Source: an uncultured Spirochaetaceae bacterium
Lineage (GTDB): Bacteria > Spirochaetota > Spirochaetia > Sphaerochaetales > Sphaerochaetaceae
Assembly: GCA_945910645.1 (NCBI GenBank)
Contig: CAMDZB010000001.1
Location: 67,180 to 131,179, forward strand
Length of the DNA stretch: 64,000 nucleotides
Direction: 5' to 3'
A program made the translations under genes and the position numbers. A model generated the notes under the pieces. That model searched no databases, was not told where the DNA came from, and saw nothing but the letters and a program-made list of their open reading frames with translations. Below, one piece after another: positions 28,990-51,088 of the stretch (the first letter of the stretch is position 1; every line of letters begins with the position of its first letter).

Positions 28990-29045
28990 AAGTATTATTT
29001 TTACATAAAGTTAGGTATTTATTCAACAGAGAAATTTTGATCTAT

Positions 29046-29975: not shown

Positions 29976-30387
29976 TTAAAGGCAAAAGACCTAATTTTAG
30001 CGTTTATTTGAGGTCTAAAAAGGGTATTTTTGAGTCAAATTTAGCGTTTTTGATGTTTTTTCAAATTAAAATGTTTCTGTAAATCAGAACAAAAAGGTTA
30101 AAATTATTTTGGATGTTTTTATGTGTATACAATAGATCTACAATAAGTGGATGTTAAGAATGATTGATATACAGAAATTATACCTAAAACAACATTAGTA
30201 TTATATCAATATCCCAACTGCTAGCATAAAAACAATCAATTTTGGTGTTGATAAGAAGTTAAAAAAAAAATTTAAAAAGTTTAATTATAAAATTTAAAAA
30301 ATAAATGATATTTAACCCCACAGAATATCTCATTAGAATCTTATGTTTTACTCCTTTTAGCAAATTTGTTTGAATTTGAGATGTAAT

Positions 30388-30403
30388 AGTTTCACGTGAA
30401 ACA
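30388..30403. promoter_or_regulatory. parS centromere-like site
   Basis: AGTTTCACGTGAAACA matches the parS consensus TGTTNCACGTGAAACA at 15 of 16 positions. Confidence 0.7.
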
Positions 30404-30764
30404 ATTTGACCATATAAATAATTTTTATTGTTTTAATAGTAAAATAATATCAGAATAATATTGAAATACTATCAAAATTATATTTTAAGACTGTTATGTA
30501 GTACATGCATAATGTTAAGAATTTAGATAATGACTATTGTATATGATGGTATTTATCACAGTAAGATCTCGTTTCATTGGATGTTGTTCTCATTATATCC
30601 TTTTAATAAAATGTATGAACATCGGGTACTGATGTATGAGGGAATTGGTTAGAGTATCTTCTGTAATAATTAGGGGTGTTTCTGGTAATTTATTATTTAT
30701 TGAATTATAGGGGGTAAATGTTAAGTTTTTACGATTGATTCTGTTCTGTTTTATAGAAACAAAA

Positions 30765-30792
30765 GGCGATTGTTTCACGTGAAACAATCGCC
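30765..30792. promoter_or_regulatory. parS site embedded in a perfect 28-bp palindrome; possible terminator for the nfu-like gene
   Basis: The palindrome is GGCGATTGTTTCACGTGAAACAATCGCC. Its core at 30771-30786 (TGTTTCACGTGAAACA) is a perfect parS consensus. Read on the minus strand, the palindrome is followed by TTTTGTTTC, directly after the stop at 30806. Confidence 0.75.
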
Positions 30793-30805
30793 AAATGATT
30801 GAAAA

Positions 30806-35904: not shown

Positions 35905-35914
35905 GCTCGCTGTA

Positions 35915-37351
35915 TTACAAGTCACATCCTACTTCGATTGCAATGGTAAAGCAAGGATCCATAAAGTTGATATGCGTATATCCCGAATCGCCTCCATACG
36001 CTTTGTACTGATCCCAAAACATATTATCAGCCTTCATGTTGTTAAAAATTAAGCGAGTGGATAAAGTGAAAACAAGCTTATACGAAAATGTAGATGTTGA
36101 TAAAAGCTTATCGGGGAACAAAGAAAAACCCACATTAGGAGCCATTACAAAAGTATAAATACTTTTATAATCAATGTTGTTTTCACCGTTTGGAACAACT
36201 CCGTTTTTATACTCATACATTGTCCAGCGTGCATAGCCTAAACCCAAACCGACAAATGGAGCAAACCATCCCTTTGACCAGCCTGATGGCACATCATACT
36301 GAACACCAAAAAGCGTAAAAGCATGATCCCTCTCGCTTGATACAAACGTCCTACCTGACGTCCATGCATTCTCTATATAAACCCTAAAATCAGTGTTCGG
36401 TATCTTATACGAAAGTTTTGAATTCCATCTTGTGTGATTGTTAAAATTGTATCCTTTAAAATTGTATCCGAAAGAATAATATAAGTCGCTGTTTTTATAC
36501 TGTCCGTTAAATGATGAAAATTCAAAGAAATCAATGAAAAACGTAGCATATGCAGAAGTGGATGAGAAAACACGCGAATATTTTATTGAAAATATTCCCA
36601 GATTGAACTGAGTTCTTAGATTAAAGCCTTTAAGGTAGTTTAAATAAACTTTTTGAGTGTAGTTTTCACCGTGCTGCTGATAAAAACTATATCCTAAAAG
36701 AACATCAAAAATATCCTTGTGTTTTTTTCCTATTTTAAAGTTCAAAAACAGCGATTGTTCATACTGAAACAAGATATCATTAATTGATGATAATCTTACC
36801 CCTGCTTTCAGAACACTATCATCCGCAATTTCCGTTTTATATAGAGCATCAACACTCAATGCGATGTGTGGTGAATATATATTTCTCCCCTCATACGTAA
36901 GGTTATAGCCTTTAATGCCCAAGAGCTTATGCCACTCGTTTTGTACCTTCTGTATCCCGGCATTTCCAAAAAACGCAAATCCCACGGATGGGGTTAAAAT
37001 CAATTCAAAACTGCCTGTATCCGCTACCCCTGTAGTCATTGAAGCAATTCCATATATCCTGTCGTATCTGCCTTCATGGCGAACTCCATCGAAATACCAA
37101 CCCTTGTTTGTAATAGCATCTATTCCGAAGGCAAATTTCCAAAGCGGAGCTGACACTTCTCCTTCAAAAGAAAACGAAAGCTGATCGTCCTGATTAATAC
37201 CGCTTGCAAAAGTAAACATATCGTTACCGGTGCCAAGTTTTACCGTATATGGAACAGCATTCTCCTTTGATAATTCCGGAGCACCGAAGACACTTGTTAC
37301 GCATAAGACAGACAGAAGTATAACAATTATTTGCTTTCTCATTTTTTGCAT
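35915..37351 (-). CDS. Hypothetical outer-membrane beta-barrel-like protein
   Basis: The product has a signal peptide and is rich in alternating aromatic/Gly beta-strand patterns. No family was recognised. Confidence 0.45.
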   Translation of the reverse strand: MQKMRKQIIVILLSVLCVTSVFGAPELSKENAVPYTVKLGTGNDMFTFASGINQDDQLSFSFEGEVSAPLWKFAFGIDAITNKGWYFDGVRHEGRYDRIYGIASMTTGVADTGSFELILTPSVGFAFFGNAGIQKVQNEWHKLLGIKGYNLTYEGRNIYSPHIALSVDALYKTEIADDSVLKAGVRLSSINDILFQYEQSLFLNFKIGKKHKDIFDVLLGYSFYQQHGENYTQKVYLNYLKGFNLRTQFNLGIFSIKYSRVFSSTSAYATFFIDFFEFSSFNGQYKNSDLYYSFGYNFKGYNFNNHTRWNSKLSYKIPNTDFRVYIENAWTSGRTFVSSERDHAFTLFGVQYDVPSGWSKGWFAPFVGLGLGYARWTMYEYKNGVVPNGENNIDYKSIYTFVMAPNVGFSLFPDKLLSTSTFSYKLVFTLSTRLIFNNMKADNMFWDQYKAYGGDSGYTHINFMDPCFTIAIEVGCDL

Positions 37352-37451
37352 CTTTTTATACCGTTGTACAATGAGTAATACCGCCTAATGCATTCCTTGT
37401 TTTCGATGTAGAACTGCTTGATTTTTAAATAACTCTTTATAAATTCAGCAA

Positions 37452-37488
37452 CAAAATGCCCGTTCTAAAACAGGACGGGCATTTTTTA
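37452..37488 (-). terminator. Rho-independent (bidirectional) terminator after the fur/PTPS-like operon
   Basis: The hairpin is ATGCCCGT...ACGGGCAT (37456-37482). It is flanked by an A-run on one side and a T-run on the other. Confidence 0.8.
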
Positions 37489-37502
37489 TTAAACGGAAGC
37501 GA

Positions 37503-38066
37503 TTATTTCTTATATCCGCACTTTGGACAAGTTCCGGCTTTATCCAAAGCAATTCCGCAAAGGGGACAACGGTCAATTTTGTTCTTTGTTTCGAATTCAC
37601 AAGATGCAGCATTAACGCCGCTTGTAAATGTCAGTTTTGCTATGTTCAATTTATCCTTTAAGAGGTCGTAAACAATTTTAATCATGCCCTCAACCGTCAT
37701 AGTTTCTTTGGTTACTACAAGTCTGCATTCCGGATAAGCTGTAGCTAACTCAGTTTTAAATGCTGGTCCTTTCATTACGTTTGTAGATGTTCCGTTTTTG
37801 ATACCCTGTTTTTCATACACAGACAGAATAGCAGGAAGAAGCGGATCATCCTCTCTTAAAATGAGCGCATGATCAAAGTTCTTTAATACATTCCATGCTG
37901 TTTTTTGTATTTCGTTACATGGGAATACCATGTTTACTCCTTTTTCAATAGAATCTTCAACTTCTATTGTTAAAACACCTGTGTGGCCATGTAAATACTG
38001 TGCTTCACCTTGGAAGCGGTAAAATCTGTGAGCATATTGTAGCTCAATTGTTGTGATACTTCTCAT
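37503..38066 (-). CDS. 6-pyruvoyl-tetrahydropterin synthase / QueD-family protein with a C-terminal zinc ribbon
   Basis: ELQYAHRF...YLHGHTGVLTIEVE and NFDHALIL resemble the PTPS/QueD zinc-binding signature. The C-terminus reads CPLCGIALDKAGTCPKCG. The ATG at 38066 is preceded by AAAGGAGAA; the track start at 38111 is a TTG. Confidence 0.65.
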   Translation of the reverse strand: MRSITTIELQYAHRFYRFQGEAQYLHGHTGVLTIEVEDSIEKGVNMVFPCNEIQKTAWNVLKNFDHALILREDDPLLPAILSVYEKQGIKNGTSTNVMKGPAFKTELATAYPECRLVVTKETMTVEGMIKIVYDLLKDKLNIAKLTFTSGVNAASCEFETKNKIDRCPLCGIALDKAGTCPKCGYKK

Positions 38067-38119
38067 AATATTCTCCTTTTGCCGAATATACGGCGTTGAT
38101 ATTAGCGACAAGGGGGGAT

Positions 38120-38491
38120 TTAACAGTTTTCCTTCTTTGCCTTACATTCAGGACAAATATTGAAAACTTTTAAATCGTAATAACAAAAATCATCTCCGAT
38201 ATGTTTTTTAATCATCTGTGTAAGATCGTCAAATTGTATGTCGGTGAGTTTTCCGCATTCTTTACATACAAGATGGTCGTGTTTATGGGCAGAATCAAAC
38301 CTGTCACACATGTCCTCTATGCACACTTTGCGGATCAATCCACCTTCACATAATTTGTTCAAATTATTATACACCGTTGCTTGAACAACATCGGGAAATA
38401 ATTCTTTAAGTTTCTCATATACCTGGTTAACCGTAAGGTGATTATGAGATTGTGTGACTATGTCATAGCATGCTTTTTCGTACTTCGTCAC
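38120..38491 (-). CDS. Fur-family transcriptional regulator (Fur/Zur/PerR type)
   Basis: The 123-aa product has a winged helix (TVYNNLNKLCEGGLIRKV), a HKHDHLVCKECGK motif and a C-terminal CPEC motif. The start is a GTG preceded by a G-rich RBS. Confidence 0.8.
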   Translation of the reverse strand: MTKYEKACYDIVTQSHNHLTVNQVYEKLKELFPDVVQATVYNNLNKLCEGGLIRKVCIEDMCDRFDSAHKHDHLVCKECGKLTDIQFDDLTQMIKKHIGDDFCYYDLKVFNICPECKAKKENC

Positions 38492-38523
38492 AACGTCCCC
38501 CCCTAACTATCATTTTTAGAACT

Positions 38524-38559
38524 GTTCTAATTTTATTATAATTAGACTAATTCTAATTG
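38524..38559. promoter_or_regulatory. Candidate operator upstream of the Fur-family gene
   Basis: TTCTAATT (38525) and AATTAGA (38540) form an inverted repeat. A third direct copy of TTCTAATT lies at 38551. The elements sit 33-68 nt upstream of the GTG start. Confidence 0.4.
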
Positions 38560-38595
38560 TCAACAATAAATCTACTTTTTTTTGTTAAATAATTC

Positions 38596-39972
38596 TTACC
38601 AAAAGTTTTTGTTGTCTATCTTATTTCTTTCTTTTATAAACAATGCGTATGCCAATATGGTTGAAAGAACTTCCGAAATAGGGAAGGCAACCCATACTCC
38701 TGAAATTCCCAGCGCAGTTTTTGAAAGGAAAAAAGCAAGTGGTACAAGTAGAATTAATTGTCGTGCAAGGTTTACGCTCATTGCGCTTACTCCGGCTCCA
38801 ATCCCCATGAAAAAGCCGTTTATGACAATCGCAATAGCTGAAAAGATAAATCCGATACTGATTATTCTGAATGCAACATAAGCAATTTTATTCATTTCTT
38901 CTGTTGTTTTGAACGGCAAAAGAATAAGGTTTGGGAAAAATTGAAACAATAAAGTGCCTAAAAGCATTACGGAACATCCGATAGCCATGGCTATTCTAAC
39001 GGTTTTTACAACGCGGTCTTTGTTTCTTGCACCGTAATTGTATCCGACAATGGGTATTACTCCGGAGTTCAATCCGAATAGCGGCATATACAAAAAGCTT
39101 TGAACCTTAAAATACAGTCCAAACACGGCAACGGCTATCTCCGAAAAAGCAACAACAATAATATTCATAAAGAGGGTAGAGATGCTTGTTAGTCCCTGAA
39201 GAACTATTGAAGGAAGTGCAACCTTATATATTTCTTTAATAGTCTGTTTTTCGGGTTTGAACTTAATAAGGTTGTGTATTCTTGCAGAGAGAATGTTTAT
39301 TCTTCTATAGAATAGGTAGCCGAGTATGCATCCAGCAATTTGTCCCAAAACCGTAGCAAGAGCAGCTCCTGCAACTCCCATTTCGGGGAACGGTCCGATT
39401 CCGAATATAAAAACAGGGTCTAAAACTATATTAATCAGAGCGCTTACTATTTGTACTATCATAGGATGAATTGAATCCCCCTCAGCCTGCATTAAACGCT
39501 CTATAACCGAACTAAACATCAACGGTGTGGATATTATAAGACATATTGAAAGATACGCCTTGGTTCCGTTTATTATTTCGGGATCAGATGAAAATGCATT
39601 TGCAAAAACACCCGAAAAGAAAATTCCAAAAAGAATAAATACCAAGCTCGAGATTATTTCAAGCCACATTCCCGTAATGGCTACTTTGTTGGCCTTTTCT
39701 GTGTTTCCAGCTCCAAGATATCGAGAAGTTAATGAATTAATTCCTATTGCGGTTCCCGAACAAACTGCAATAATTCCCATTTGCAAAGGGAATACTATAG
39801 AAAGGGAAGCCAAGTATTTTGCACTGTAATGAGAGATGAAAATGCTGTCTACCACATTGTAAAGAGCCATAACCATCATTGAAAACATTATGGGGATACT
39901 CATTTTACAAATAAGAATACCTATGTTCTCAACACCTAATATATTTCTGTCGCTATTGCTGTTGTTAATCAT
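38596..39972 (-). CDS. MATE family efflux transporter
   Basis: The 458-aa product has about 12 TM segments. The N-terminus is typical of the MATE family (IPIMFSMMVMALYNVVDSIFISH). Confidence 0.85.
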   Translation of the reverse strand: MINNSNSDRNILGVENIGILICKMSIPIMFSMMVMALYNVVDSIFISHYSAKYLASLSIVFPLQMGIIAVCSGTAIGINSLTSRYLGAGNTEKANKVAITGMWLEIISSLVFILFGIFFSGVFANAFSSDPEIINGTKAYLSICLIISTPLMFSSVIERLMQAEGDSIHPMIVQIVSALINIVLDPVFIFGIGPFPEMGVAGAALATVLGQIAGCILGYLFYRRINILSARIHNLIKFKPEKQTIKEIYKVALPSIVLQGLTSISTLFMNIIVVAFSEIAVAVFGLYFKVQSFLYMPLFGLNSGVIPIVGYNYGARNKDRVVKTVRIAMAIGCSVMLLGTLLFQFFPNLILLPFKTTEEMNKIAYVAFRIISIGFIFSAIAIVINGFFMGIGAGVSAMSVNLARQLILLVPLAFFLSKTALGISGVWVAFPISEVLSTILAYALFIKERNKIDNKNFW

Positions 39973-40216
39973 AGTTTAATATGTTTGATGAAAAAAAATT
40001 TTTTGTCAATTGTTTATCTAAATCACTTCTATCTGTGATAAAAACGATTGTTGTACTATGTAATTCTTCGCTTTTCATTAAAAGTATTGCTAAAAATAGC
40101 ATTCCGTAACTTTTGCCTAGCTTGTTGTTCCAAAATATGTTTCGCCTTTTCTCATGCACGCAACCATTAAAACGTTCCGGAGCTTTCTTCTGCTTGTGCG
40201 TATGCCCGCCAATCAA
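39965..40216 (-). pseudogene. Relic of a type I restriction enzyme R subunit (hsdR) helicase motif I region
   Basis: The 83-codon fragment reads IFWNNKLGKSYGMLFLAILLMK...TIVFITDRSDLDKQL. This resembles the HsdR segment IWHTxGSGKSxTMxFLA...xVxDRxDLDxQ, but with a degenerate Walker A. About 95% of a normal hsdR gene is missing. Confidence 0.45.
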
Positions 40217-40268
40217 ATCCGCCTAAATTGCTGTTCGAAGTCGTATATAAAATTGGGAGGGAGTAGAA

Positions 40269-41150
40269 ATGCCAATTACAGTCGAACGTGAAAAATGGAT
40301 TTTATATAAACATACTTGCAACTATGAGATGATTAAAGCGGTAGCTTTGGACGTGAAGAATAGTTGTAAAAGCGATATTTCAGATTTGGAACGGCATAGA
40401 ATGCAAGAACGTCTTGCCGCTTTGGATTTGTATCGCACGAGAAATCCGAAAGAACATCCGTTAGACTCTATAAACCATAGAATCAACACGCTTGAATTTT
40501 GGATGTTCGGTTACGAAGATAATACTAATGGAGACAAGAAGTTTATTTTCAGCCCCTTGGGTAACTTGTTTTTCAATTATTGACGGATCCAAGATTGGAA
40601 GGTAAATTATACAATTATGAAGAAGAACTGATATTACCGTTCGTTAACAGAGTTACGCCCGAAGCCTACGAACAAATCGTAAATCAAATCTTATCTGTTC
40701 GTAACGCGGAAGACGACGATATTATAAGAACGTTTAAGTCCGACGAACATACTTACGTAAACACCGTATACGAATGGGAGTATTATACTCAAACGTTGTT
40801 GGCGCAGGTTGGTATAATTAACAAAGTCGAAGGAGATACGCTTTGTAAACTTTACCACCCTTCAAAACCTACTAGCAAAAGTTTGCCTACGGGAAGACGA
40901 GCGACAAAGGATATATTGCTCTTAAAGACGAGTGCGTTACGTTCCCGCTACGAAGTGAGATATAAAAGAAACGCCTATCGTTATCATTTTGGCGAACACA
41001 TTCGCCGAATACTTGTATAACAATATCTTCCACGAAGTAAGAGATATCAAATATGCGGATTTCGATAATATTATCATAAACAATTTGAGAACGGATATAA
41101 GCGGACTTATATCGAATATGACGCTTGAAAAGTTTGCCACCAATAGTTAA
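40269..41150 (+). pseudogene. Twice-frameshifted gene upstream of vsr (possible decayed restriction endonuclease)
   Basis: Three consecutive open segments are found: phase A 40269-40583, phase B about 40580-41020, and phase A again about 40959-41150. Segments overlap at their ends and there are no intergenic gaps. The last stop (41148) lies 5 nt before the vsr ATG. The function is inferred from context only. Confidence 0.45.
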
Positions 41151-41155
41151 TCTTT

Positions 41156-41539
41156 ATGTCGGATATCTTTGAACCTAAAAAACGATCCGCTATTATGAGC
41201 AAGGTTCGGTCAAAAGGTAATAAATCGACCGAATTAAGGCTTATCAAATATTTTAAGGAGAACAATATGCACGGATGGCGTCGTGGTTATAAGGTTAAAG
41301 GACATCCCGATTTTGTTTTTCTTGATTATAAGATTGCTATTTTTGTTGACGGATGCTTTTGGCACGGTCACGACTGTCGCAATACTCGTCCGTCCGAAAA
41401 CGCAGATTTTTGGCAAAAGAAACGAGAACGTAATATGCTTCATGATCGGGAGATAACCGCATTGTTTGAAGCGAGAGGTTGGACAGTAATTCGCATTTGG
41501 GAATGCGAATTGAGAAAGAAAAATTACGAGTATCAATGA
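41156..41539 (+). CDS. vsr: Very short patch repair endonuclease
   Basis: The sequence RSAIMSKVRSKGNKSTELRL...GHPDFVFLDYKIAIFVDGCFWHGHDC...IRIWECE matches the Vsr signature. Confidence 0.92.
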   Translation: MSDIFEPKKRSAIMSKVRSKGNKSTELRLIKYFKENNMHGWRRGYKVKGHPDFVFLDYKIAIFVDGCFWHGHDCRNTRPSENADFWQKKRERNMLHDREITALFEARGWTVIRIWECELRKKNYEYQ

Positions 41540-41596
41540 ACGAGAATAAAAGAAACTATGGAAGCAGAATTATAAACCTTAATCGGAGATGGAATT

Positions 41597-42649
41597 ATGC
41601 CTTTTGAAGTTGTAGATTTGTTTTGTGGCGTCGGCGGACTTACTTGCGGTATGAAGCAAGCGGGTTTTAATGTCGTCGCGGGTTTTGATAATGATAAAAC
41701 CTGCGAGTACGCCTATTCTTTTAACAATCAAACTAATTTTATATGTAGGAATATTCGCGAAGTCGAAGCGCGGGACATTGATAATTGTTATAGTGAGGGC
41801 GCGGATAAAATATTGGTCGGTTGCGCTCCTTGTCAACCTTTTTCAACAATGAGTTATAAACGCTTCAAGTCGTCTTCGCGTGAATTGGACGGAAAATACG
41901 ATTTATTAAAAGAATTTGGGCGTTTAATAAAAGGCGTTTCACCTTCTATTGTCTCTATGGAAAACGTCCCTGAAATTCGTAATTCTGGCGTTTTTGAAGA
42001 TTTTATAAAAACGTTACAAGACGAAGGATATTATACGGACGGAGGACAAGTCGTTTATTGTCCCGATTATGGGATCCCTCAAAATAGGCATAGATTTATT
42101 CTATTAGCGTCGAAATATGGCGAAATTCATTTGCTTCCTCCGACTCATAAAAGGAAAGACGTAACGGTTCGTCCGTTTATTGAAAAATTGCCCCCTATTT
42201 CCGCCGGTGAAACGTGTCAATCAGATCGTCTCCATAGAACGGCAACTCTTTCCCCTATCAATTTGCGTAGAATTCAAGCATCTGTGCCGGGCGGGACTTG
42301 GAAAGATTGGCCGGAAGAATTGAGATGTAAGTGTCATAAAAAGGATACGGGACAAACATATACGTCGGTCTATGGGCGTATGTCGTGGGATAAAATTGGT
42401 CCAACGATGACGACGCAGTTTTTCTGTTATGGGACAGGTCGTTATGGGCATCCTGAACAAGACAGAGCGTTATCATTACGGGAAGGCGCATTGTTACAAA
42501 CTTTTCCACAAGACTATGAGTTTTTCCCGCCTGAAGAACAGGAATATAGTATGCGCGACGTGGCAAGGCACATCGGTAATGCCGTACCCGTTAGATTAGG
42601 TGAAATCATAGGTGAAAGTATTAGCAGACATATTAACGATATGAGGTAA
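41597..42649 (+). CDS. dcm: DNA (cytosine-5)-methyltransferase
   Basis: The motifs are I (DLFCGVGGLTCG), IV (GCAPCQPFS), VI (SMENVPE), VIII (QNRHRFILLA) and X (GNAVPVRLG). Confidence 0.93.
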   Translation: MPFEVVDLFCGVGGLTCGMKQAGFNVVAGFDNDKTCEYAYSFNNQTNFICRNIREVEARDIDNCYSEGADKILVGCAPCQPFSTMSYKRFKSSSRELDGKYDLLKEFGRLIKGVSPSIVSMENVPEIRNSGVFEDFIKTLQDEGYYTDGGQVVYCPDYGIPQNRHRFILLASKYGEIHLLPPTHKRKDVTVRPFIEKLPPISAGETCQSDRLHRTATLSPINLRRIQASVPGGTWKDWPEELRCKCHKKDTGQTYTSVYGRMSWDKIGPTMTTQFFCYGTGRYGHPEQDRALSLREGALLQTFPQDYEFFPPEEQEYSMRDVARHIGNAVPVRLGEIIGESISRHINDMR

Positions 42650-42652
42650 TAT

Positions 42653-44320
42653 ATGAATATGAACGAAGAAAGTCTTCAACTTAAATTTGATCCCCGTACT
42701 ATTGAGCATTTGGGAATAAAAATGTATTCTCAATTACCATACGCTTTAGCCGAATTGGTGGCAAACGCTTATGATGCTGGCGCTTCTAACGTGATTATAA
42801 ATCTCAATGATAAGGAATCAGACTCCAAGAGCATTGTAATTAGCGACGACGGAGACGGAATGTCGTATGAAGAAGTTAGAGATAATTTTTTAGTAATCGG
42901 TAGAAAGCGTAGAGATACTGACGAGAGCAGAACTAATTCTAAAGGTAGAAAGATCACAGGCAAAAAAGGTTTGGGTAAACTTGCGCTTTTTGGAATCGGA
43001 AAAACAATTACGATTGAAACGACAAAAGCGGGAGAAAGTCAAAAAACCGTCTTTATGCTTGATTGGGATAGTATTCTTAACGAACCTTCGGGTGTATATC
43101 ACCCGACAGAAAATAGAGTGGATAAGGAGAATATCAACGAAAAAGGGACGAAAATTATATTGTCAAGATTATCAAGAGTAACTGATTTTGATTTAATGGC
43201 AACGGCTATTTCGTTATCAAAACTTTTTAATTGTTTTGATTTGGATTTTAATATTAAAATAGCGAAAAACGACGATGAGCCAATTCTTTTAACAAGGGAA
43301 ATGAAGTATAACGAAATAGAAAAAGAGTTTGAATGGGACATTCAAGAAATTGTTTCGGAATTGAAAGCGGATTACAAATATAAAACGGAATTAAAGGGCA
43401 CTATTATTTCTTCAAAGAAACCGATGAGGCAGGATTTAAGAGGCATTATTCTTTATGTAAACGGTCGTCTTGCTAATATACCGGGATTCTTTGGAGTGTC
43501 CGAAGCCGGACATACTTTTTCTTATATTTCTGGCTGGATAGATGCCGATTATCTTGATGAATTTGATAAAGATTTGATATCCACCGATAGACAGTCAATA
43601 AGTTGGGATTTACCGGAAGCGGAAGAATTGCAAAACTATTTACAAAGTATTGTGCGCTTCTTGGTTAAAGATTGGAGCAGTAAAAGGAAAAAAGCAAAAG
43701 AAGATAATAATACGCAAAAAACGGGAATTAACATTTCGGAATGGTATGACAAAGTCCCCGATTCTGTACGTCCCAAATTAAAGATCGTTATTGATAAAAT
43801 TGCGGACAAGCCCGAGATAGACGATACGGATTTTTCTGCCGTAATACATAACGTATACGATTTAATCCCGCCCTATACTTATTATCACTACCGATTTTTG
43901 CATGAGCAAGTTCAAGACTCCGCGGAAACATATTATAAGGCAAAGAATTATTACGAAGCGTTTCAAGAAGCAATGAAAAGATATAAAAATGCGGTTAAGG
44001 ATAAATCGGGTGTTTCCGGGACTGAAGATCGCGACATCGTATCTAACGCATTTGGAAAAAATGGTGCGCTTAAAACGACGGCAAATTATAAGAACCGTCC
44101 TAATGGACAGCCTTTTGCCAAAAAAACATTAGAAAATATTGAAGAAGGACAACAGTTCTTATCTATGGGTGTCGTATGTGGCGGGAGAAATGTTGTCAGT
44201 CACGAAGAAATCGCAGATTTAAGGGATTCCAAATTGTTTACCGAAAAAGACTGTTTGGATTTATTGAGTTTACTTTCACATCTATTCAAGCGGCTGGATG
44301 AATCTAAGAAAAAAAAATGA
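42653..44320 (+). CDS. GHKL (HATPase_c_3 / MORC-like) ATPase fused to a C-terminal Ymh/TIGR02391-like domain
   Basis: The Bergerat-fold boxes are N (LAELVANAYDAGAS), G1 (ISDDGDGMS) and G2 (GKKGLGKLALFGIG). The C-terminal roughly 130 aa reach the motif CGGRNVVSHEE, which resembles the RNxxxH motif of the Ymh family. The start lies 4 nt after the dcm stop. Confidence 0.7.
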   Translation: MNMNEESLQLKFDPRTIEHLGIKMYSQLPYALAELVANAYDAGASNVIINLNDKESDSKSIVISDDGDGMSYEEVRDNFLVIGRKRRDTDESRTNSKGRKITGKKGLGKLALFGIGKTITIETTKAGESQKTVFMLDWDSILNEPSGVYHPTENRVDKENINEKGTKIILSRLSRVTDFDLMATAISLSKLFNCFDLDFNIKIAKNDDEPILLTREMKYNEIEKEFEWDIQEIVSELKADYKYKTELKGTIISSKKPMRQDLRGIILYVNGRLANIPGFFGVSEAGHTFSYISGWIDADYLDEFDKDLISTDRQSISWDLPEAEELQNYLQSIVRFLVKDWSSKRKKAKEDNNTQKTGINISEWYDKVPDSVRPKLKIVIDKIADKPEIDDTDFSAVIHNVYDLIPPYTYYHYRFLHEQVQDSAETYYKAKNYYEAFQEAMKRYKNAVKDKSGVSGTEDRDIVSNAFGKNGALKTTANYKNRPNGQPFAKKTLENIEEGQQFLSMGVVCGGRNVVSHEEIADLRDSKLFTEKDCLDLLSLLSHLFKRLDESKKKK

Positions 44321-44401
44321 AACAATCAACATATTGGATTCTGATATGAAAATGAAATCGTTTGAATACTATGATATGAATTATAGCCTTTATTCCTTTA
44401 T

Positions 44402-44902
44402 ATGCAACGGTCAAAGACGGGCGGGTTTGAAGTTGTTGATATTCTTAAGGAGAAAGTGGTTAGCAAGCCTTTGTTTAAGATTACCGATTCACAAAAACGA
44501 TGCCGTTACTGTGGGAAAACAGTATCCGAAGTAAGTTTTAATAAAAAAGAACATATTTTCCCAGAATCCATCGGTAATAAACTTTTTATAAGTAAAGGTT
44601 GCGAGTGTTATGATTGCAACAAGTTGTTCGGCGAAAACTATGAAAACGATCTTAATGCTTTTTTGTTCCCTTGTATAGTCTTAAATGGGATTATAGGAAA
44701 GAAAGGTCGTAAGAAGTATAAATCTTTTGATACTACGAGTACCGTCGATTTTTCAAACGATATTTTAACGATTAAAAAGCAAATTGGCAAAGCAAAAATT
44801 AGATTTGATGAGGCAAACAAGCAAATATTTTATGATTTTGATATACAGCCATATTCTTTGGCCAAGGTTTATAAAATATTGCTAACGATGCACTGCGCAT
44901 AA
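44402..44902 (+). CDS. HNH-motif endonuclease-like protein, possibly 3'-truncated
   Basis: The HNH-type pattern is CRYCGKTVSEVSFNKKEHIFPESIGN...CECYDCNKLF (CxxC...H...N...CxxCN). The ORF ends where the convergent hamB remnant begins. No RBS is evident. Confidence 0.55.
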   Translation: MQRSKTGGFEVVDILKEKVVSKPLFKITDSQKRCRYCGKTVSEVSFNKKEHIFPESIGNKLFISKGCECYDCNKLFGENYENDLNAFLFPCIVLNGIIGKKGRKKYKSFDTTSTVDFSNDILTIKKQIGKAKIRFDEANKQIFYDFDIQPYSLAKVYKILLTMHCA

Positions 44903-45740
44903 TTAATTCTGTTGCCTTAGTTTTTTCTGCACTAGTTGGCATTTGAATTGTCGCAGATTTTCCTTTAAATATGTCATTTTCACCTATTAAAATTTGGGAA
45001 GGCCACAATTCTTTTATATCAATTTGAGTCAAAATGGGTTTCCATATTTCTTTGTCAATATTTGTAAATAACAGCATTGTATACCAGGTAGTGTGCAGAT
45101 ATTTCTTTTTTACAACTGCACATAAAATATCGATAAAAAGTAATTCTCTATCAGTACCGTTTTGATAGATTTTTTTTCTTAGATTATCTAAATGCTTAAA
45201 AATATTTGCGGAATTCTCTCCTGTTGAGCAAAATTGGTTCCAAGAAGAAATTATATTATTAATAAATTCGATATAACCATTTTCTTGTATTTCTATTGAA
45301 AAATCATTTTTAGAAAACTCAATAGTAGCAAATCTAATTTATTAGCATCCAAATTTAATTTATACGGATTAAGTTTATCGGCAAGAACTTTGGTGCTTCC
45401 CATATAATCACATAAATAATAAGCCGCACTGCCCATTATTATAATAGTAGTCTCTATTTTCATCTTGTAATTTTGCATTTAAATATGCATCAAAGAACTG
45501 TGCCGAAAATACTAAGTTATCTTTTAATTCATTTAGGGAATCCTTTTCATTATTATCATTATTGCAAAATTTTGCAGAATAATCTCCTAATAAAGCAATA
45601 GTAAGAATAAATAAATCTTTAATTTTTTCTTTATCAATGTGTATACGATTTTCTATAAGAACATCATACTCATACATTTTTGCTTCAGATCTAGTCATGC
45701 CTAACAATTTATTGGAGTTAATTCCTGGTTTAAGCTTCAT
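44889..45740 (-). pseudogene. hamB: hamB (Hachiman helicase) remnant: frameshifted and truncated just after helicase motif I
   Basis: Three open segments lie in different phases: 45740-45408, 45478-45293 and about 45340-44889. The first overlaps the hamA stop by 11 nt. The last segment reads LWPSQ...GKSATIQMPTSAEKTKATELIM, an SF2 helicase motif I with the Gly of GKT replaced (AEKT). No further helicase motifs follow. Confidence 0.55.
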
Positions 45741-46548
45741 TGGCAGCCCTCCGATAAAGCTCGTGAACTAAATTCATCATATTATCACCCTTGACGATTA
45801 TAAGCATTAAATGAGGAATATCTACATGATTTGATGTATCCGATGTTCTTAAAACTTTTTCGTCATATATTTCGTTAGAAAACAATGCTGCTGCTCCATA
45901 CAACATAGTATATGGTCTATCTGATATATTTTCAAAACGTTCTACCTTTTTGGCATTTTCAATATTATTTCTCTCAATATATCTTTGTTTCATTGCATTT
46001 AAAGATTCTGCTATTCGCACATTATCCTTTCGAGAATCATCAATTGCTTTTTGCAATCGATTCTCGGTTGTATTTGTATATGAAGCTTTTGCTTCAATAA
46101 CCGTAAGAATATCCTTATTGGTTTCATTCGAATCAAATAATTTAAATCCAATTATATCTGACCCCATAGGGGATGAATTTCTATTAATTTTATTTGAATA
46201 TCTAGTTCTTGGAACCCAATAGTTCAATATATACTCAAGATAGTCAGATATTAATATTTCACTAAAATCGCCTGCACGGACACTTGGACCAGGTGCAACT
46301 GTTTGATCTGGGAATTTGAGGGTTAACAAATAATCCTTTTTTGACAAACCAGTTCCATTTCTTAAAAGATCTATTATTTCGTCAGAACAATAATGGTTTC
46401 TAAAATGTTTAGCCCAAGCCGACATGGTTTCAGCATCGCTACTATCATAATTAAAAGAAAAAACTTTAATAGGTTTTCCATCTGCGGTAGTAATGTTTTC
46501 TTTTTTTTCTTCAACTAACCATTCTGAAATTTTTTTTTGCCATGTCAT
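45730..46548 (-). CDS. hamA: HamA-like (DUF1837) Hachiman effector, PD-(D/E)xK type
   Basis: The 272-aa product carries GDFSEILISDYLEY, GSDIIGF and LTVIEAKAS (a D...ExK arrangement). A helicase-like gene follows immediately downstream, as in Hachiman. The family assignment is from memory of DUF1837 and has not been searched. Confidence 0.55.
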   Translation of the reverse strand: MTWQKKISEWLVEEKKENITTADGKPIKVFSFNYDSSDAETMSAWAKHFRNHYCSDEIIDLLRNGTGLSKKDYLLTLKFPDQTVAPGPSVRAGDFSEILISDYLEYILNYWVPRTRYSNKINRNSSPMGSDIIGFKLFDSNETNKDILTVIEAKASYTNTTENRLQKAIDDSRKDNVRIAESLNAMKQRYIERNNIENAKKVERFENISDRPYTMLYGAAALFSNEIYDEKVLRTSDTSNHVDIPHLMLIIVKGDNMMNLVHELYRRAANEA

Positions 46549-46664
46549 TATAGAGTTCCTCTACATTATTATATAATAAAATTAATAATAAACATTAGTG
46601 TTGCTATTCTTAACTTTTATTCATTACATTGTGCTAATGACATGGTTAGTATATAATAATTTCT

Positions 46665-47852
46665 ATGGAGAAGGTAAACGATTTGTCGCCCATAATTAAG
46701 TGGGCTGGAGGTAAAGAACAAGAACTAAAGTATATTCTTCCGAATGTACCGGATACTTTTGTTCGCTTTATTGAGCCTTTCGTTGGCGGAGGGGCAGTTT
46801 ATTTCTCCATAGGGAATAAAAATAAGCTCATAAATGACAAATCTGTTGAATTAACAACTTTATACAATAACATAAAGTTTAAAAACAAGGATTTTATAAC
46901 TCGTTTGCAGTCTCTTCAAGATGCTTGGATTGGGTTAGAAAGCATTTTGGATAATAGTATTGATGTTTTTAACACAACTTATTTAAAATATAAAGTTAAT
47001 AAAATTGCAAAAGAAGATTTAATTAAAAATATTGAATTGTTTATAAACGATAATAAAACGGCTTTTAAACAACTATTAAATCCTGAATTACTGAAATATT
47101 ATGACATTTTTGAAAAAGAACTATTGCGTAATATAAGTGCAAAATTAGTTCGCATGAAGGATTTGGAAGAAAAAAAAGGAAATCTTCCGGAAAAAGACAT
47201 TCACGATAATTTTGAATGTGCATTAAAAGGTTCTTTCTATATGTTTATAAGAGCTTTATATAATAAATATGACAATAGCGAATATTTTTATTTTATTCGT
47301 GAATACTGCTATTCTTCTATGTTTCGATATAATTCTAATGGAGAATTTAATGTTCCTTATGGTGGAATTTCTTATAATAGAAAGAACTTTCAAAGAAAAA
47401 TTGACTATATAAAATCCAAAGAACTTCAGTCTCATTTTGCAAATACAGACATATACAATCTCGATTTTGAAGAATTTTTGGACAAAATTAAACTTACAAA
47501 GAATGATTTTATATTTTTAGATCCCCCATATGATACTGATTTTAGCAGTTATGTAAATAATACTTTTGACAAACAAGATCAGGAACGCTTGGCAAATTAT
47601 TTAATCAATAAATGTCCGGCAAAATTTATGCTTGTAATTAAAAATACAGAATTTATTTCGAATTTGTATAGCAGTAAAGGACTATACATAACAAGTTTTG
47701 ATAAAACATATATGGTTAATTTCAATGGTCGCAATAATAGGGATTGTGAGCACTTGTTAATTACAAATTATCCTATTGGCGAAGAAGTTAAGAAAATAAG
47801 TAATGTTGCAGTTCTTAAACAAAATAAGGAAAAGCAACTGCAATATGCATAG
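46665..47852 (+). CDS. Dam-family (D12 class, alpha-type) N6-adenine DNA methyltransferase with a large internal insertion
   Basis: The motifs are IIKWAGGKEQEL, motif I (IEPFVGGGAVYF) and motif IV (FLDPPYDT). At 395 aa it is longer than the roughly 280 aa of canonical Dam. Confidence 0.85.
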   Translation: MEKVNDLSPIIKWAGGKEQELKYILPNVPDTFVRFIEPFVGGGAVYFSIGNKNKLINDKSVELTTLYNNIKFKNKDFITRLQSLQDAWIGLESILDNSIDVFNTTYLKYKVNKIAKEDLIKNIELFINDNKTAFKQLLNPELLKYYDIFEKELLRNISAKLVRMKDLEEKKGNLPEKDIHDNFECALKGSFYMFIRALYNKYDNSEYFYFIREYCYSSMFRYNSNGEFNVPYGGISYNRKNFQRKIDYIKSKELQSHFANTDIYNLDFEEFLDKIKLTKNDFIFLDPPYDTDFSSYVNNTFDKQDQERLANYLINKCPAKFMLVIKNTEFISNLYSSKGLYITSFDKTYMVNFNGRNNRDCEHLLITNYPIGEEVKKISNVAVLKQNKEKQLQYA

Positions 47853-47862
47853 GCAATTGGCT

Positions 47863-48524
47863 ATGAAAGGTAAAATTACTGAAATTATAGAACAAGAGTA
47901 TCTTAAAATGTTAAAATCTATATAATTAGATTTTAAAAGATTTTTTGTGAAAAAAACACAATTTCTTATTGGACGCTTTGAATATAGATACAAAAATAGG
48001 TCTAGTGTTTGGCAGTAGTTTTGTATCAAAAGTTGTAAATGCTATGTAAAGAGTGGCATTAGAAATATCACGTTTAAAATATGGTGAAGAGAATGTACCA
48101 TATATAATATTCATAAAATGAAGGAAATTTAGGATGCAAACCTCCAAAAAAATGTAGCTTAAATATTACAGAGTTAAAAACCTTATTAATCAAGTTACCT
48201 AAAAATATTATAAAAAATGATCTTGATTTGGTGTTTTATGATAGGAAAAATTGACATTTGTTAGAAATAAAAGTTAATGGAGATTTAGAGATTTCCAATG
48301 CAAGAGATAAGATAAGAAAATTATTCAAATCATATGTAGCTTTAAATTCAAATAATACAAAGATTTATTTTGCAATATACTATCATAAAACAGGTAGTGG
48401 AAAATGGAAAGAATCAATGAAAAAATTCCTACAATATCCTGATATGGTTTTAATAGATTCAGAATTTTGGGAAAAGATTTTACCAGAGAATATTTCATTT
48501 GATGAATTTAAAATATCTATCTAA
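47863..48524 (+). pseudogene. Decayed paralogue of the downstream PD-ExK restriction endonuclease
   Basis: The pieces align with the 48589 protein. MKGKITEIIEQEYLKMLKSI* matches MKDRIFQIVEEEFSSLVTRIQ. GLVFGSSFVSKVVNAM*RVALEISRLKYGEENVPYII matches HMVFVSSFESKSGNSIQKVAKEVAKLRYGAENVPQIV. DLDLVFYDRKN*HLLEIKVNGD matches VDLAFWDGDELNIMEIKAGGN. In-frame stops occur at 47923, 48047 and about 48252, together with frame changes. Confidence 0.8.
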
Positions 48525-48588
48525 AAGTAATGAAAAAAATTAAAATCACCAGTATAATTAATGATTTAAAAATATATGTGAGGAATAA

Positions 48589-49434
48589 ATGAAAGATAGA
48601 ATATTTCAAATCGTAGAAGAAGAGTTTTCATCACTAGTTACAAGAATTCAAAGTGACTTTGTAAGCAATTTCAAAGCGAAGCAAAACAATTTTTTGTTAA
48701 AAGAATTGGACACAATGATGTCTGCCCATATGGTTTTCGTGAGTAGTTTTGAGTCAAAGAGTGGTAACTCAATACAGAAAGTTGCTAAAGAAGTTGCAAA
48801 ATTAAGATATGGAGCAGAAAATGTTCCTCAGATAGTTAATCCTCATAACTTAGAACATAATGTTCAAAACCCAAATGAACATGAACAAATAATTGTTTCA
48901 AATATCGATATGGGCAACTCTCAATTACAAGGAAGGATTACTGAATTTATGACAAGATGTGAAGGTGATAGTAAAAGAAAAATTTGTTGTTCCGTAAATC
49001 ATGAAACTATTTTGGAATTATTAGAACAACCTTTACCAATAACAAATGAAATTCATACCAAGCCCGTTGATTTAGCTTTTTGGGATGGCGATGAATTAAA
49101 TATTATGGAAATTAAAGCTGGAGGCAATCTCGATAGCAGTAATGCTCCATCAAATGCTAAAAAGTTATTAACAATTTATACCGGCTTAAATTATAGAAAA
49201 ACAAGACCATATTTTGCAACTATTTACCACAAAGACGGTGAAGGTAGAACTTGGTCTGGTTCTATCAAAAAATATTTGCAGTATCCACATATGTTTTTAG
49301 TGGGTTCTGCTTTCTGGAATAAAATTTTACCTAGTGGTATTGATTTTAATGATTTTACTAAGATTTATAACGAAGCAATGAGTCAAATAAATTTGAACGA
49401 AAAATTAAATGAGATGATTAGAAGTTGCTCATAG
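48589..49434 (+). CDS. Type II restriction endonuclease-like PD-ExK protein
   Basis: The 281-aa product has the catalytic-type arrangement PVDLAFWDGD...IMEIKAGG. It is flanked by two DNA methyltransferase genes and preceded by an RBS (GAGGA). The specificity and family name are not determinable here. Confidence 0.65.
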   Translation: MKDRIFQIVEEEFSSLVTRIQSDFVSNFKAKQNNFLLKELDTMMSAHMVFVSSFESKSGNSIQKVAKEVAKLRYGAENVPQIVNPHNLEHNVQNPNEHEQIIVSNIDMGNSQLQGRITEFMTRCEGDSKRKICCSVNHETILELLEQPLPITNEIHTKPVDLAFWDGDELNIMEIKAGGNLDSSNAPSNAKKLLTIYTGLNYRKTRPYFATIYHKDGEGRTWSGSIKKYLQYPHMFLVGSAFWNKILPSGIDFNDFTKIYNEAMSQINLNEKLNEMIRSCS

Positions 49435-50149
49435 CATATTCTTTTATTTTGCGTTCATGTGCCTGAAATCTTTTATTTGTAGCATCAAAATATTCTTTTT
49501 CTAGTTCGATACCTATAAAATTACGTTTTAAATTATATGCGGCAATTCCGGTTGAACCAACACCCATAAACGGATCGAGAATAGTATCACCTTCATTAGA
49601 GGCAATTTTAATAATATGTTCTAATAATTTTATGGGTTTCTGTGCAGGATGTTTTGGATTAGAAAGTCTTTCAGGCTGCATACAAATTGGAGTTTGAATA
49701 AAATTGTGCATTTCTTTTTGATTGCTAAAATTCCATTTATGCCCTTTATTCCACATGCAAACAATAAGCTCACAACTATTTAAAAAACCATTTTTATAGA
49801 TTTTAGGAGCAGGATTTGTTTTATGCCAAACCATAAATTGAAAAGTATCGAATTCAGGATCGAATGCTTCGTGCCATTTCCCGATTTGATTATATGTTGT
49901 AAAAACAAATATATTTCCTTTTGGTTTAATTATCCTTTTAAAATTAGCTAACAAATCTCGTGGTTCAATTTCAGGTTTATCCCAATCAGCTAAATTATTA
50001 TTAAGTGCAGAACGACCGGGTAAATCAATATTTCCTGTAGAATACTTTGCGATATTATACGGAGGATCCGTCAATATTAAATCGACAGATTTATCAGGAA
50101 TATCATCTAATAGTTTAAAACAGTCACCATATCTTAAATCGTAAGCCAT
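49418..50149 (-). CDS. Beta-class N6-adenine/N4-cytosine DNA methyltransferase (N-4/N-6 methylase domain)
   Basis: Motif IV (LILTDPPYNI) precedes motif I (DPFMGVGSTGIAA), which is the beta-class order. The ATG at 50149 is preceded by AAAGGAGATAAGA. The 3' end overlaps the convergent endonuclease gene by 17 nt. Confidence 0.85.
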   Translation of the reverse strand: MAYDLRYGDCFKLLDDIPDKSVDLILTDPPYNIAKYSTGNIDLPGRSALNNNLADWDKPEIEPRDLLANFKRIIKPKGNIFVFTTYNQIGKWHEAFDPEFDTFQFMVWHKTNPAPKIYKNGFLNSCELIVCMWNKGHKWNFSNQKEMHNFIQTPICMQPERLSNPKHPAQKPIKLLEHIIKIASNEGDTILDPFMGVGSTGIAAYNLKRNFIGIELEKEYFDATNKRFQAHERKIKEYAMSNF

Positions 50150-50324
50150 TCTTATCTCCTTTCTTTTATAATACATTAAAATTTTTGCTTTGTCCTTTTA
50201 TTTGAGTTTTCATAACATACATCATTCTTTCAATTGGTTATTCAATATAATGTGTTGCTATGTAAAGATTTGAGTGCTTTCTTTCTTGTTTTACGCTAAT
50301 GTTGTGTATCAAAGGAGGTTTAAT

Positions 50325-50540
50325 ATGGAAAAAGTCGAATTGAATATTACTCTAAAGGAGTTTAAGCAATTAAGTAAGTGGGCGGAGGATATTTATAACA
50401 CAGCGATTGTTATTGATTATTTCGTAGCGAATCAACCAGAAATAGAAGAACGCTATAATCTCGCATCGGTAGTTAAGCATCTGCGAAACGATGCAGATAT
50501 GTTGAATGCATTCTTCATTGTCCACGGAAAAAGATGTTGA
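50325..50540 (+). CDS. Small hypothetical protein (71 aa)
   Basis: The ATG at 50325 is preceded by AAAGGAGG. No family was recognised. Confidence 0.4.
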   Translation: MEKVELNITLKEFKQLSKWAEDIYNTAIVIDYFVANQPEIEERYNLASVVKHLRNDADMLNAFFIVHGKRC

Positions 50541-50841
50541 TATTTAAATGCCATTTAAACTGTGTTCATAAATCATTATGTCCAAATAATATGATTTTAG
50601 ACGCATACACTTGATGTTTATCACCTAAAGAGTGATGAATGGTGTAGTTTGAAAGGAGCATATATTGCGTATTGTCTTCAAGCATAATTTTATATCCAAC
50701 ATGCGCTGTTGATTTTCAATTCAAAAATCAGACAAGTGTAGCTCTGCAGGGTTTACCTGTAAATGGATTAATTACTTGCACTGCAAGTTTATGCCCATCT
50801 GCGACTAAAATATCTCCGATTTGCAATACCCCCCACATACT

Positions 50842-50914
50842 TGGAGATGAGGGGAGTCGAACCCCCGACCCTTAGATTGCGAACCTAATGCTCTACCAAC
50901 TGAGCTACATCCCC
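50842..50914 (-). tRNA. tRNA-Ala (anticodon CGC)
   Basis: The reverse complement is GGGGATGTAGCTCAGTTGGTAGAGCATTAGGTTCGCAATCTAAGGGTCGGGGGTTCGACTCCCCTCATCTCCA. It has the G3:U70 Ala identity pair, a TT-CGC-AA anticodon loop and a GGTTCGACTCC T-arm. Confidence 0.9.
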
Positions 50915-51088
50915 ATATCCTATACTTTATTACATCGTCAAAACAAATTCCACAGATTGAGGCAATAATTATAACCAAAAACAGGTATTTTTTGCGGATT
51001 TATTTTTGCTAATTTTTGTTGCTAAAAATCATTGAATCAAATAATTTATTGAAAATATAATTAAAGTATCCTAAAAAGAGGTGAGATT

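Follow-up and report, generated by a model that had tools for sequence, protein, structure and literature searches.

Defense islands at integration hotspots have been surveyed in the Escherichia coli pan-genome (PMC10121019), and defense cargo is also carried by Tn7-like elements, some of which home to sites 30–33 nucleotides (nt) downstream of tRNA genes (PMC8649781, PMC10293859). Among the defense systems relevant here, type I Hachiman is composed of the HamA nuclease and the HamB helicase and requires the HamAB complex (PMC11914072; PMC12278908), HamA alone having no nuclease activity in vitro (PMC11914072). Here we describe a composite defense island of ~11 kb that abuts a tRNA-Ala(CGC) gene in an uncultured Spirochaetaceae bacterium (genome G000; relatives are coded G and metagenome loci L). 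The window analyzed is 64,000 nt in length and corresponds to G000:C1:67180-131179. Like the hotspots of the E. coli survey, the island has clustered systems beside a tRNA gene, a foreign composition, vestiges of a mobile element, a content that differs between relatives and many decayed genes. It differs from them in being without an integrase or attachment (att) sites, in residing in a 1.15-Mb Sphaerochaetaceae metagenome-assembled genome (MAG) and in being documented in two species of one genus only. We think it likely that mobile defense DNA was acquired several times in succession on the 3' side of tRNA-Ala(CGC), that every acquisition then decayed by deletion, and that the interval is the fossil of these events.

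The source genome is a 33-contig MAG, 95.7% complete and of 41.7% GC. Its closest public genome, of the same genus, is that of Spirochaetales bacterium SUG2063 (G002), and remoter relatives are Sphaerochaetaceae MAGs. Gene content was called with Pfam, PADLOC and NCBIfam, which confirmed almost item for item the gene list of the tRNA-abutting island proposed in an initial annotation made from the sequence alone (Table 1). Fourteen recognizable genes or scraps were found between the MATE gene and the tRNA gene, and twelve of these, in 10.8 kb, were related to restriction, modification or defense. The initial annotation had assigned every gene to this category or to its relics; it had missed a 71-amino acid (aa) open reading frame (ORF) and a transposase scrap. 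It had also estimated that at least four of ten modules were inactivated. Decay was indeed evident, and the corrected count is six of the 14 units: the hsdR scrap, a type II restriction endonuclease (REase) gene, the HNH half-gene, hamB, a REase paralogue and the transposase scrap. What had been described as a frameshifted gene is broken by two internal deletions rather than by one frameshift, and the gene listed as HNH has an HNH_5 match and is truncated to ~163 of ~330 codons. The predicted pair of one live and one dead endonuclease corresponds to two PF09520 genes, an intact one (R2) and a paralogue with stop codons and a frame change.

The two-part composition that had been judged by eye (38–40% versus 28–30% GC) was reproduced by calculation. 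Positions 40217-44902 were 37.5% GC and positions 44903-50300 were 28.5% GC, the latter value being under the 0.5th percentile of the 5-kb windows of the genome. The tetranucleotide profile likewise ranked the AT-rich part as the top outlier, as the three 4.4-kb genome windows with the largest distances all fell within window positions 43922-49421. The left part was a mild outlier, with 3.1% of the genome windows deviating more. The next strongest outliers were at G000:C2:41801-51700 and C3:44001-49500, which are possibly further foreign islands.

The origin of the AT-rich part was indicated by its Hachiman genes. The closest HamA proteins (92% identical) were encoded on metagenome contigs L050, L051 and L052, on which an intact hamB, for a 1047-aa protein, comes after hamA. 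Nucleotide homology at 90% identity extended from window position 46578 to 44892, ending abruptly inside hamB. A transposase of 601 aa, with rve and Mu-transpos_C domains, is encoded ~7 kb upstream of hamA on the same contigs, and the transposase scrap of the window aligned to L050:1075-1237 with 84.7% identity over 163 nt (blastn). This scrap is 8–25 nt from the 3' end of the tRNA. The native 3' flank of the tRNA that is common to G000 and G002 is ~25 nt in length (50816-50840), so that the scrap begins essentially where this flank ends. Its orientation relative to the tRNA is that of the intact gene in L054, a contig on which the related element starts shortly past the terminator of tRNA-Gly(TCC) and the transposase reads away from the tRNA. 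The gene order there is tRNA-Gly(TCC), terminator, a helix-turn-helix (HTH) gene, two small ORFs, the transposase and a 226-aa AAA+/TniB-like ATPase, and the cargo comprises Nmad3, DUF6994, a DpnII REase with two methyltransferases (MTases), HamA, HamB, DUF4238 and RES. The host of this element is a distant bacterium of 33% GC whose sigma-70 shares only 56% aa identity with that of G000, and yet its hamAB and transposase genes were 90% and 85% identical, respectively, to those of the window, compared with ~70% for the core genes of the sister species.

Comparison with G002 indicated that the same tRNA flank has different cargo in the sister species. Two G002 contigs, C60 and C45, could be joined through an overlap of exactly 141 nt, which is the k-mer of the assembler, and then gave a 478-aa gene, then 1,622 nt at 27% GC, and then tRNA-Ala(CGC) (C60:10941-12401 plus C45:142-301; L069, L022). 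Within the 1,622 nt was an intact DpnI gene (PF06044, 6e-76) framed by scraps of MTase, DpnII and DUF6994 genes, and these scraps were 85–89% nt identical to genes of the L050-type element. An exchange of DpnI and DpnII cassettes was reportedly described in Streptococcus pneumoniae by Lacks and co-workers in 1986. The G002 locus resembles the pneumococcal case in that intact DpnI lies between scraps of the DpnII REase and MTase at one locus; it differs in being in a spirochete and beside a tRNA, and it concerns G002, not the window. We interpret the G000 and G002 intervals as what decay has left of one kind of element at this tRNA; the remnants in the two species do not overlap, and the cargo that survives differs between them. 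The interval of the related genome, at 1.6 kb and of different content, is thus not identical to that of G000, and the comparison supports the turnover at one hotspot that the initial annotation had suggested, G002 being the single comparator and the only comparable relative.

Homology further divided the island into blocks A (40012-44360), B (the HNH half-gene, 44361-44891) and C (44892-50832). A word-indexed search gave no homologues of the HNH gene and an exhaustive search found them, at ~310–340 aa. No HNH gene followed the GHKL gene in any of the relatives' contexts examined, and therefore at least three blocks have to be assumed. The HNH homology ended at residue 163-164 (position 44891), the hamAB homology to L050, L052 and L053 ended at 44888-44892, and the HNH ORF takes its final three codons and its stop codon from antisense hamB.

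Compared with described type I Hachiman systems, hamA in the window is full length, whereas hamB breaks off at about codon 284 of 1047, with +1 and -1 frameshifts and a G-to-E change in Walker A (GKT to EKT); the hamB remnant retains 90% nt identity to L050. Judged from these lesions, the Hachiman system of the window cannot work as described. The hamA product was 91.5% aa identical to HamA of intact systems and the hamA-hamB overlap was conserved. The ratio of non-synonymous to synonymous substitution rates (dN/dS) of hamA was 0.23 when the homologue used for comparison came from an intact system; two other homologues compared with each other gave the same value. There is therefore no sign yet of decay in hamA. 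Based on the lack of nuclease activity of HamA alone, the orphan hamA would be expected to be inert. A second, independent case of intact hamA beside decayed hamB was observed in L053 (L053:9001-12250, GCA_964018095.1), in which hamB has residues 470–803 deleted, a frame change and a truncation after residue 938.

Block A had its own relatives. The Logan contig L046 was 97–98% identical to window positions 40000-44360, hsdR scrap included, with homology that stopped 40 nt past the stop codon of the GHKL gene and gave way to an IS256-type transposase. The hsdR scrap of the window aligned to positions 287–343 of 1029 in the PADLOC REase_I profile and to positions 265–321 of 674 in TIGR00348 (38.9 bits versus a cutoff of 284), and that of L046 has an additional 66-nt deletion. 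The REase pseudogene of the window retains residues 1–104, 142–266 and 417–487 of an intact 487-aa homologue in L042, in alternating frames. Its copy in L046 was 98% identical with a different deletion, and vsr is split in L046. By sequence comparison, the lesions in these REase, hsdR and vsr copies represent independent decay of the same module. In L042 the module is intact, 79% identical, and has a 708-aa Dcm before the REase; as this Dcm gene is missing from the window, the dead REase probably lost its cognate MTase.

The adjacent vsr and dcm genes of block A both scored above their NCBIfam cutoffs (for dcm, TIGR00675 at 119.1 bits versus 100.65), and Dcm keeps the FxGxG, PCQ and ENV motifs. 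The gene that follows encodes a GHKL ATPase fused to a Ymh domain, keeps its catalytic motifs and belongs to a large, tightly conserved metagenome family of ~555-aa proteins. A 350-aa Dcm directly precedes GHKL-Ymh in five contexts (L041, L042, L043, L046 and L047), often with vsr and other restriction genes upstream, and in two of the five the pair is beside PcfJ/PcfK/ArdA conjugative genes. The closest described proteins are the BbrUII/HgiDII GHKL restriction enzymes (NF050001), whose positions 2–406 of 659 are matched by the N-terminal 390 residues of the window protein, and which likewise go with an m5C MTase and Vsr; in the window the gene follows dcm and vsr. The match was only 208.9 bits versus a cutoff of 550, and the window protein differs in having the Ymh/TIGR02391 domain in place of the C-terminal third, with no recognizable nuclease domain. 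GHKL-Ymh is the probable restriction partner of Dcm. From the contexts found, block A appears to circulate independently in gut metagenomes, near IS256-type transposases and in conjugative settings.

We propose that the island arose in steps. In the first, which is documented in part, an element with a transposase, an AAA+ ATPase and a cargo of restriction and Hachiman genes would have landed downstream of the tRNA, the transposase end adjoining it. Its remnant would be block C (29% GC), in which hamA, 284 codons from the start of hamB and a stump of the transposase gene persist. We infer a second step of cargo exchange, with two TdeIII/HinfI-family restriction-modification pairs now occupying the place of the DpnII cassette in the intact relative; of their two REases, one would then have decayed and left an orphan Dam-class MTase. 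The third step would be the addition of block A (38% GC), whose separate origin is documented and which holds the hsdR scrap, the REase pseudogene, vsr, dcm and GHKL-Ymh. In the fourth, also documented, a single deletion fused half of the HNH gene to hamB at 44891/2, and other deletions took the transposition genes up to ~10–25 nt from the tRNA, presumably the selective limit. In G002, too, the mobility genes would have been deleted as far as the tRNA flank.

Transposition downstream of the tRNA, or recombination of an element already inserted there, fits these data better than an integrase acting at att sites. The 3' end of tRNA-Ala points toward lower coordinates, into the island, and tRNA genes are the commonest targets of integrases (PMC10121019). 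The initial annotation had spoken of classical integration polarity. In a classical genomic island of this kind, a tyrosine integrase would have inserted the DNA into the tRNA 3' end, duplicating att, and would since have been lost. The geometry is correct, but the mechanism is improbable: when 12–30 nt of the tRNA 3' end were used as queries on both strands of 37–52 kb, no match of 14–30 nt with ≤3 mismatches was found, and the partial tRNA-Ala repeats that had been anticipated were thus not recovered. Nor was there a tyrosine or serine integrase gene or scrap among the ORFs and scraps of 39965-50840, the sole recombinase vestige being the DDE transposase fragment that abuts the tRNA flank. 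Somewhat more weight, while still unlikely, has to be given to the idea that this fragment is left from the random insertion of a Mu-like transposable prophage or satellite, with its adjacency to the tRNA coincidental and the island grown by unrelated events. A Mu-transpos_C domain is present in the transposase, the gene for a MuB-like AAA+ ATPase comes after it, small neighboring genes match phage-type HTH families (Terminase_5, DUF1804), one gene downstream matches Phage_P4_cII, and distant homologues of the transposase are without tRNA linkage. Yet the 12 kb past the L050 transposase contain no phage structural genes and are filled by defense genes, and the element or its scraps are in the same orientation, ~0.1–1.6 kb from the 3' end, at two different tRNAs in unrelated hosts.

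An old region, inherited vertically and low in GC from local constraints rather than horizontal transfer, would account for the identity of all assemblies of the strain. We regard it as very improbable, as the island is 85–98% identical to DNA in unrelated contexts against ~70% when core genes are compared with the nearest species, a search for the island DNA in 60 relatives did not find it, and the sister species differs at the same tRNA. A search of a plasmid database with both halves of the island returned only short MTase matches at 67–75% identity. Misjoining of foreign low-GC contigs to a spirochete chromosome could also be imagined in a MAG of 33 contigs whose most atypical DNA is block C. 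This explanation is scarcely credible, since six independent metagenome assemblies (ERZ11466771, ERZ11466792, ERZ11466724, ERZ11466701, SRR11489787 and SRR11489779) matched the window at 99.99–100% identity and jointly spanned every junction from the left to the right core genes; they exclude chimerism and are silent on turnover.

Several observations weigh against our proposal of successive acquisitions at the tRNA flank. The transposase vestige is of 56 codons only, and targeting of tRNA flanks rests on two loci, tRNA-Gly in L054 and tRNA-Ala in G000/G002. The ends of the element and a target-site duplication could not be defined. TnsA and TniQ/TnsD were not detected in the L054 element by Pfam or NCBIfam, and among distant homologues of the transposase (23–40% identity) a tRNA was within 3.5 kb upstream in at most one of 18 Spirochaetota genomes. 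There was no variation within the species, as all assemblies of the strain are identical; exact-protein look-ups for other strains likewise returned near-identical copies of the G000 strain only. Gene order is scrambled throughout between G000 and G002, which weakens positional arguments, and arguments from their synteny were dropped for this reason. Finally, when the four ORFs nearest to tRNA-Ala(CGC) were inspected across 14 further genera of this family, they were mostly housekeeping genes; the few defense-type matches were two to SoFic and one each to a type IIG enzyme and LmuB. A family-wide hotspot at tRNA-Ala(CGC) was therefore rejected; the hotspot is lineage-specific at best and documented for this genus only. 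Contigs ended less than 900 nt from the 3' end of tRNA-Ala(CGC) in five of the 19 family genomes with a confirmed tRNA-Ala(CGC) (L119, L125, L126, L128 and G002:C45), which may reflect variable or repeated DNA there.

Table 1. Features of the island, its left flank and its tRNA boundary (window coordinates).
Feature	Coordinates	Strand	Evidence or remark
478-aa gene	35913-37372	minus	95.8% nt identity to G002:C60:9481-10940
PTPS-Fur-MATE cassette	37373-40011	minus	Pfam MatE, FUR, PTPS; not defense related
hsdR scrap, internal helicase-motif fragment, ~60 codons	39965-40216	minus	PADLOC REase_I 1.9e-13
Type II REase pseudogene, two internal deletions	40269-41150	plus	PADLOC REase_II PDLC03533
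vsr, intact	41156-41539	plus	TIGR00632 104.8 bits vs cutoff 97.85, positions 1-119 of 119
dcm (C5-cytosine MTase), intact	41597-42649	plus	PF00145 1.3e-54
GHKL ATPase fused to Ymh (TIGR02391) domain, intact	42653-44320	plus	HATPase_c_3 1.2e-24, Hypoth_Ymh 1.6e-15
HNH_5 gene, 5' half only	44402-44902	plus	residues 2-163 align to 28-189 of 329
Deletion junction, truncated HNH to truncated hamB	44891-44892		both homologies end there
hamB remnant, codons 1 to ~284 of 1047	44892-45740	minus	PADLOC HamB matches in three frames
hamA, intact, orphaned	45730-46548	minus	PADLOC HamA PDLC00161 2.6e-109, positions 1-271 of 271
Dam-class (D12) N6-adenine MTase, intact	46665-47852	plus	PF02086 6.9e-32
Dead TdeIII/HinfI-family REase, paralogue of the live one	~47933-48524	plus	PF09520 5.7e-6, longest ORF
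R2, live TdeIII/HinfI-family (PF09520) type II REase, intact	48589-49434	plus	34.5 bits vs cutoff 27.2
M2, beta-class N6-adenine/N4-cytosine MTase, intact, convergent with R2	49418-50176	minus	PF01555 7.4e-38, 1-220 of 221
71-aa ORF	50325-50540	plus	preceded by AAAGGAGG ribosome-binding site
Mu-type DDE transposase scrap, codons 186-241 of 601	50660-50832	minus	tblastn 80% aa identity, E 2.6e-23
tRNA-Ala(CGC)	50841-50915	minus	ARAGORN; right boundary; 97% identical in G002

The restriction genes of block C comprise both intact and dead members (Table 1). The D12 MTase scored 164.5 bits against TIGR00571 (cutoff 114.85) and keeps the FxGxG and DPPY motifs; as its REase is dead, it is considered an orphan. 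The dead REase has two frames and in-frame stops, and was 43–44% aa identical to the live one over residues 25–83 and 134–256. The live copy, R2, spans positions 4–240 of 242 in PF09520 and keeps the D...EIK motif. In M2, the DPPY motif at residue 37 precedes FxGxG at residue 203, and the best NCBIfam model was CcrM, with a score far under the cutoff. Based on these domain and motif matches, two systems are probably intact, Vsr/Dcm/GHKL-Ymh and R2/M2, and we infer that present-day function would be limited to the Dcm/Vsr/GHKL-Ymh unit, R2/M2 and the orphan Dam-class MTase. The two orphans, this MTase and hamA, would be expected to do no harm.

The 71-aa ORF had no family match in Pfam, PADLOC or NCBIfam, and of 151 family genomes only G000 and G002 were found to carry it, at 61% aa identity. 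In G002 (L036:11265-11567) it sits between tRNA-Phe and an hsdS-like gene, and in both genomes the ORF is convergent with a tRNA (Ala in G000, Phe in G002) and beside restriction genes.

On the left, the MATE gene that the initial annotation had taken as the island boundary did not hold as such. It belongs to a PTPS-Fur-MATE cassette that was 95.7% identical to G002:C82:29154-31798, where it is placed in a different neighborhood, and homology ended at 40011/40012. As the cassette was ~96% identical between G000 and G002 versus 67–73% for syntenic core neighbors, and as its G002 copy is elsewhere, MATE cannot be regarded as a stable edge of the host DNA; the cassette itself lies inside the variable interval, which is 37373-50815. 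In G002 the 478-aa gene, not MATE, directly borders the tRNA-Ala interval; this gene had no Pfam or NCBIfam match. A search of genome and metagenome collections with the MATE protein returned only G002 plus relatives at 42–44% identity. Together the 478-aa gene and the cassette form 4.1 kb (35913-40011) that are 96% identical to G002 and are divided there over two contigs and contexts. Such identity points to recent exchange between the G000 and G002 species. A further 605 nt (G000:C5:50297-50901) matched the end of G002 contig C82 at 99% identity and are also recently shared. At window positions 39973-40018, the 39 nt before the MATE start are shared with G002 and, translated in the same frame as the hsdR scrap, still give ...QLT(K/N)NFF. 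The scrap may already have been present at the locus from which the cassette was copied, although the stretch is too short for certainty. Genes for dnaA, a xer-like recombinase and parB are at 27607-30805, 10–20 kb to the left of the island, which places it near the replication origin.

The intact relative of the island's element resembles Tn7-like transposons in its succession of a DDE transposase and an AAA+ ATPase, in its fixed orientation downstream of a tRNA and in its long defense cargo. It differs from them in that no TnsA or TniQ/TnsD was detected and in that the similarity to TnsB was marginal (PDB, E 0.008), and it is for these reasons described here as a Mu/Tn7-superfamily transposon and not as Tn7-like. 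In L054, the transposase domains were rve (1.8e-4) and Mu-transpos_C (7.9e-15), and the ATPase matched AAA_22 (8.3e-13), TniB (4.6e-7) and, in the PDB, generic AAA+ proteins only. The left-end region of L054 carries AGTGCAAGT-type repeats; the right end is beyond the contigs and the ends in the window are deleted. One other Spirochaetota genome, G176, had the transposase at 85% identity, and no further copies were found in the family of G176. After the ATPase, L054:9455-10006 encodes a 183-aa protein whose only domain is Phage_int_SAM_3 (the N-terminal, core-binding domain of tyrosine recombinases), a candidate target selector. By analogy with TnsF, this protein could select the target. We speculate, with considerable doubt, that the element represents an undescribed family of tRNA-flank-targeting transposons without TnsA or TniQ, in which a Mu-type DDE transposase and a short AAA+ ATPase would form the core together with the 183-aa protein. 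If this speculation is correct, such elements would ferry large defense cargoes between distantly related bacteria, and the window and the sister species would hold two independently decayed fossils of them.

Defense islands are already well known, and the main value of this locus is documentary. By-products of its study are the intact relative of the mobile element and the widespread, uncharacterized pair of Dcm and GHKL-Ymh. The island illustrates stepwise turnover, from the arrival of a mobile element at a tRNA flank through a swap of cargo to the loss of mobility genes up to the tRNA edge, and it also illustrates how REase loss leads to orphan MTases and how near-identical copies decay independently (the REase in L046, hamB in L053). 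For the organism itself, the finding means that a reduced Sphaerochaetaceae genome of 1.15 Mb keeps ~1% of its DNA in a junkyard of defense genes in which only two of about six systems look functional.

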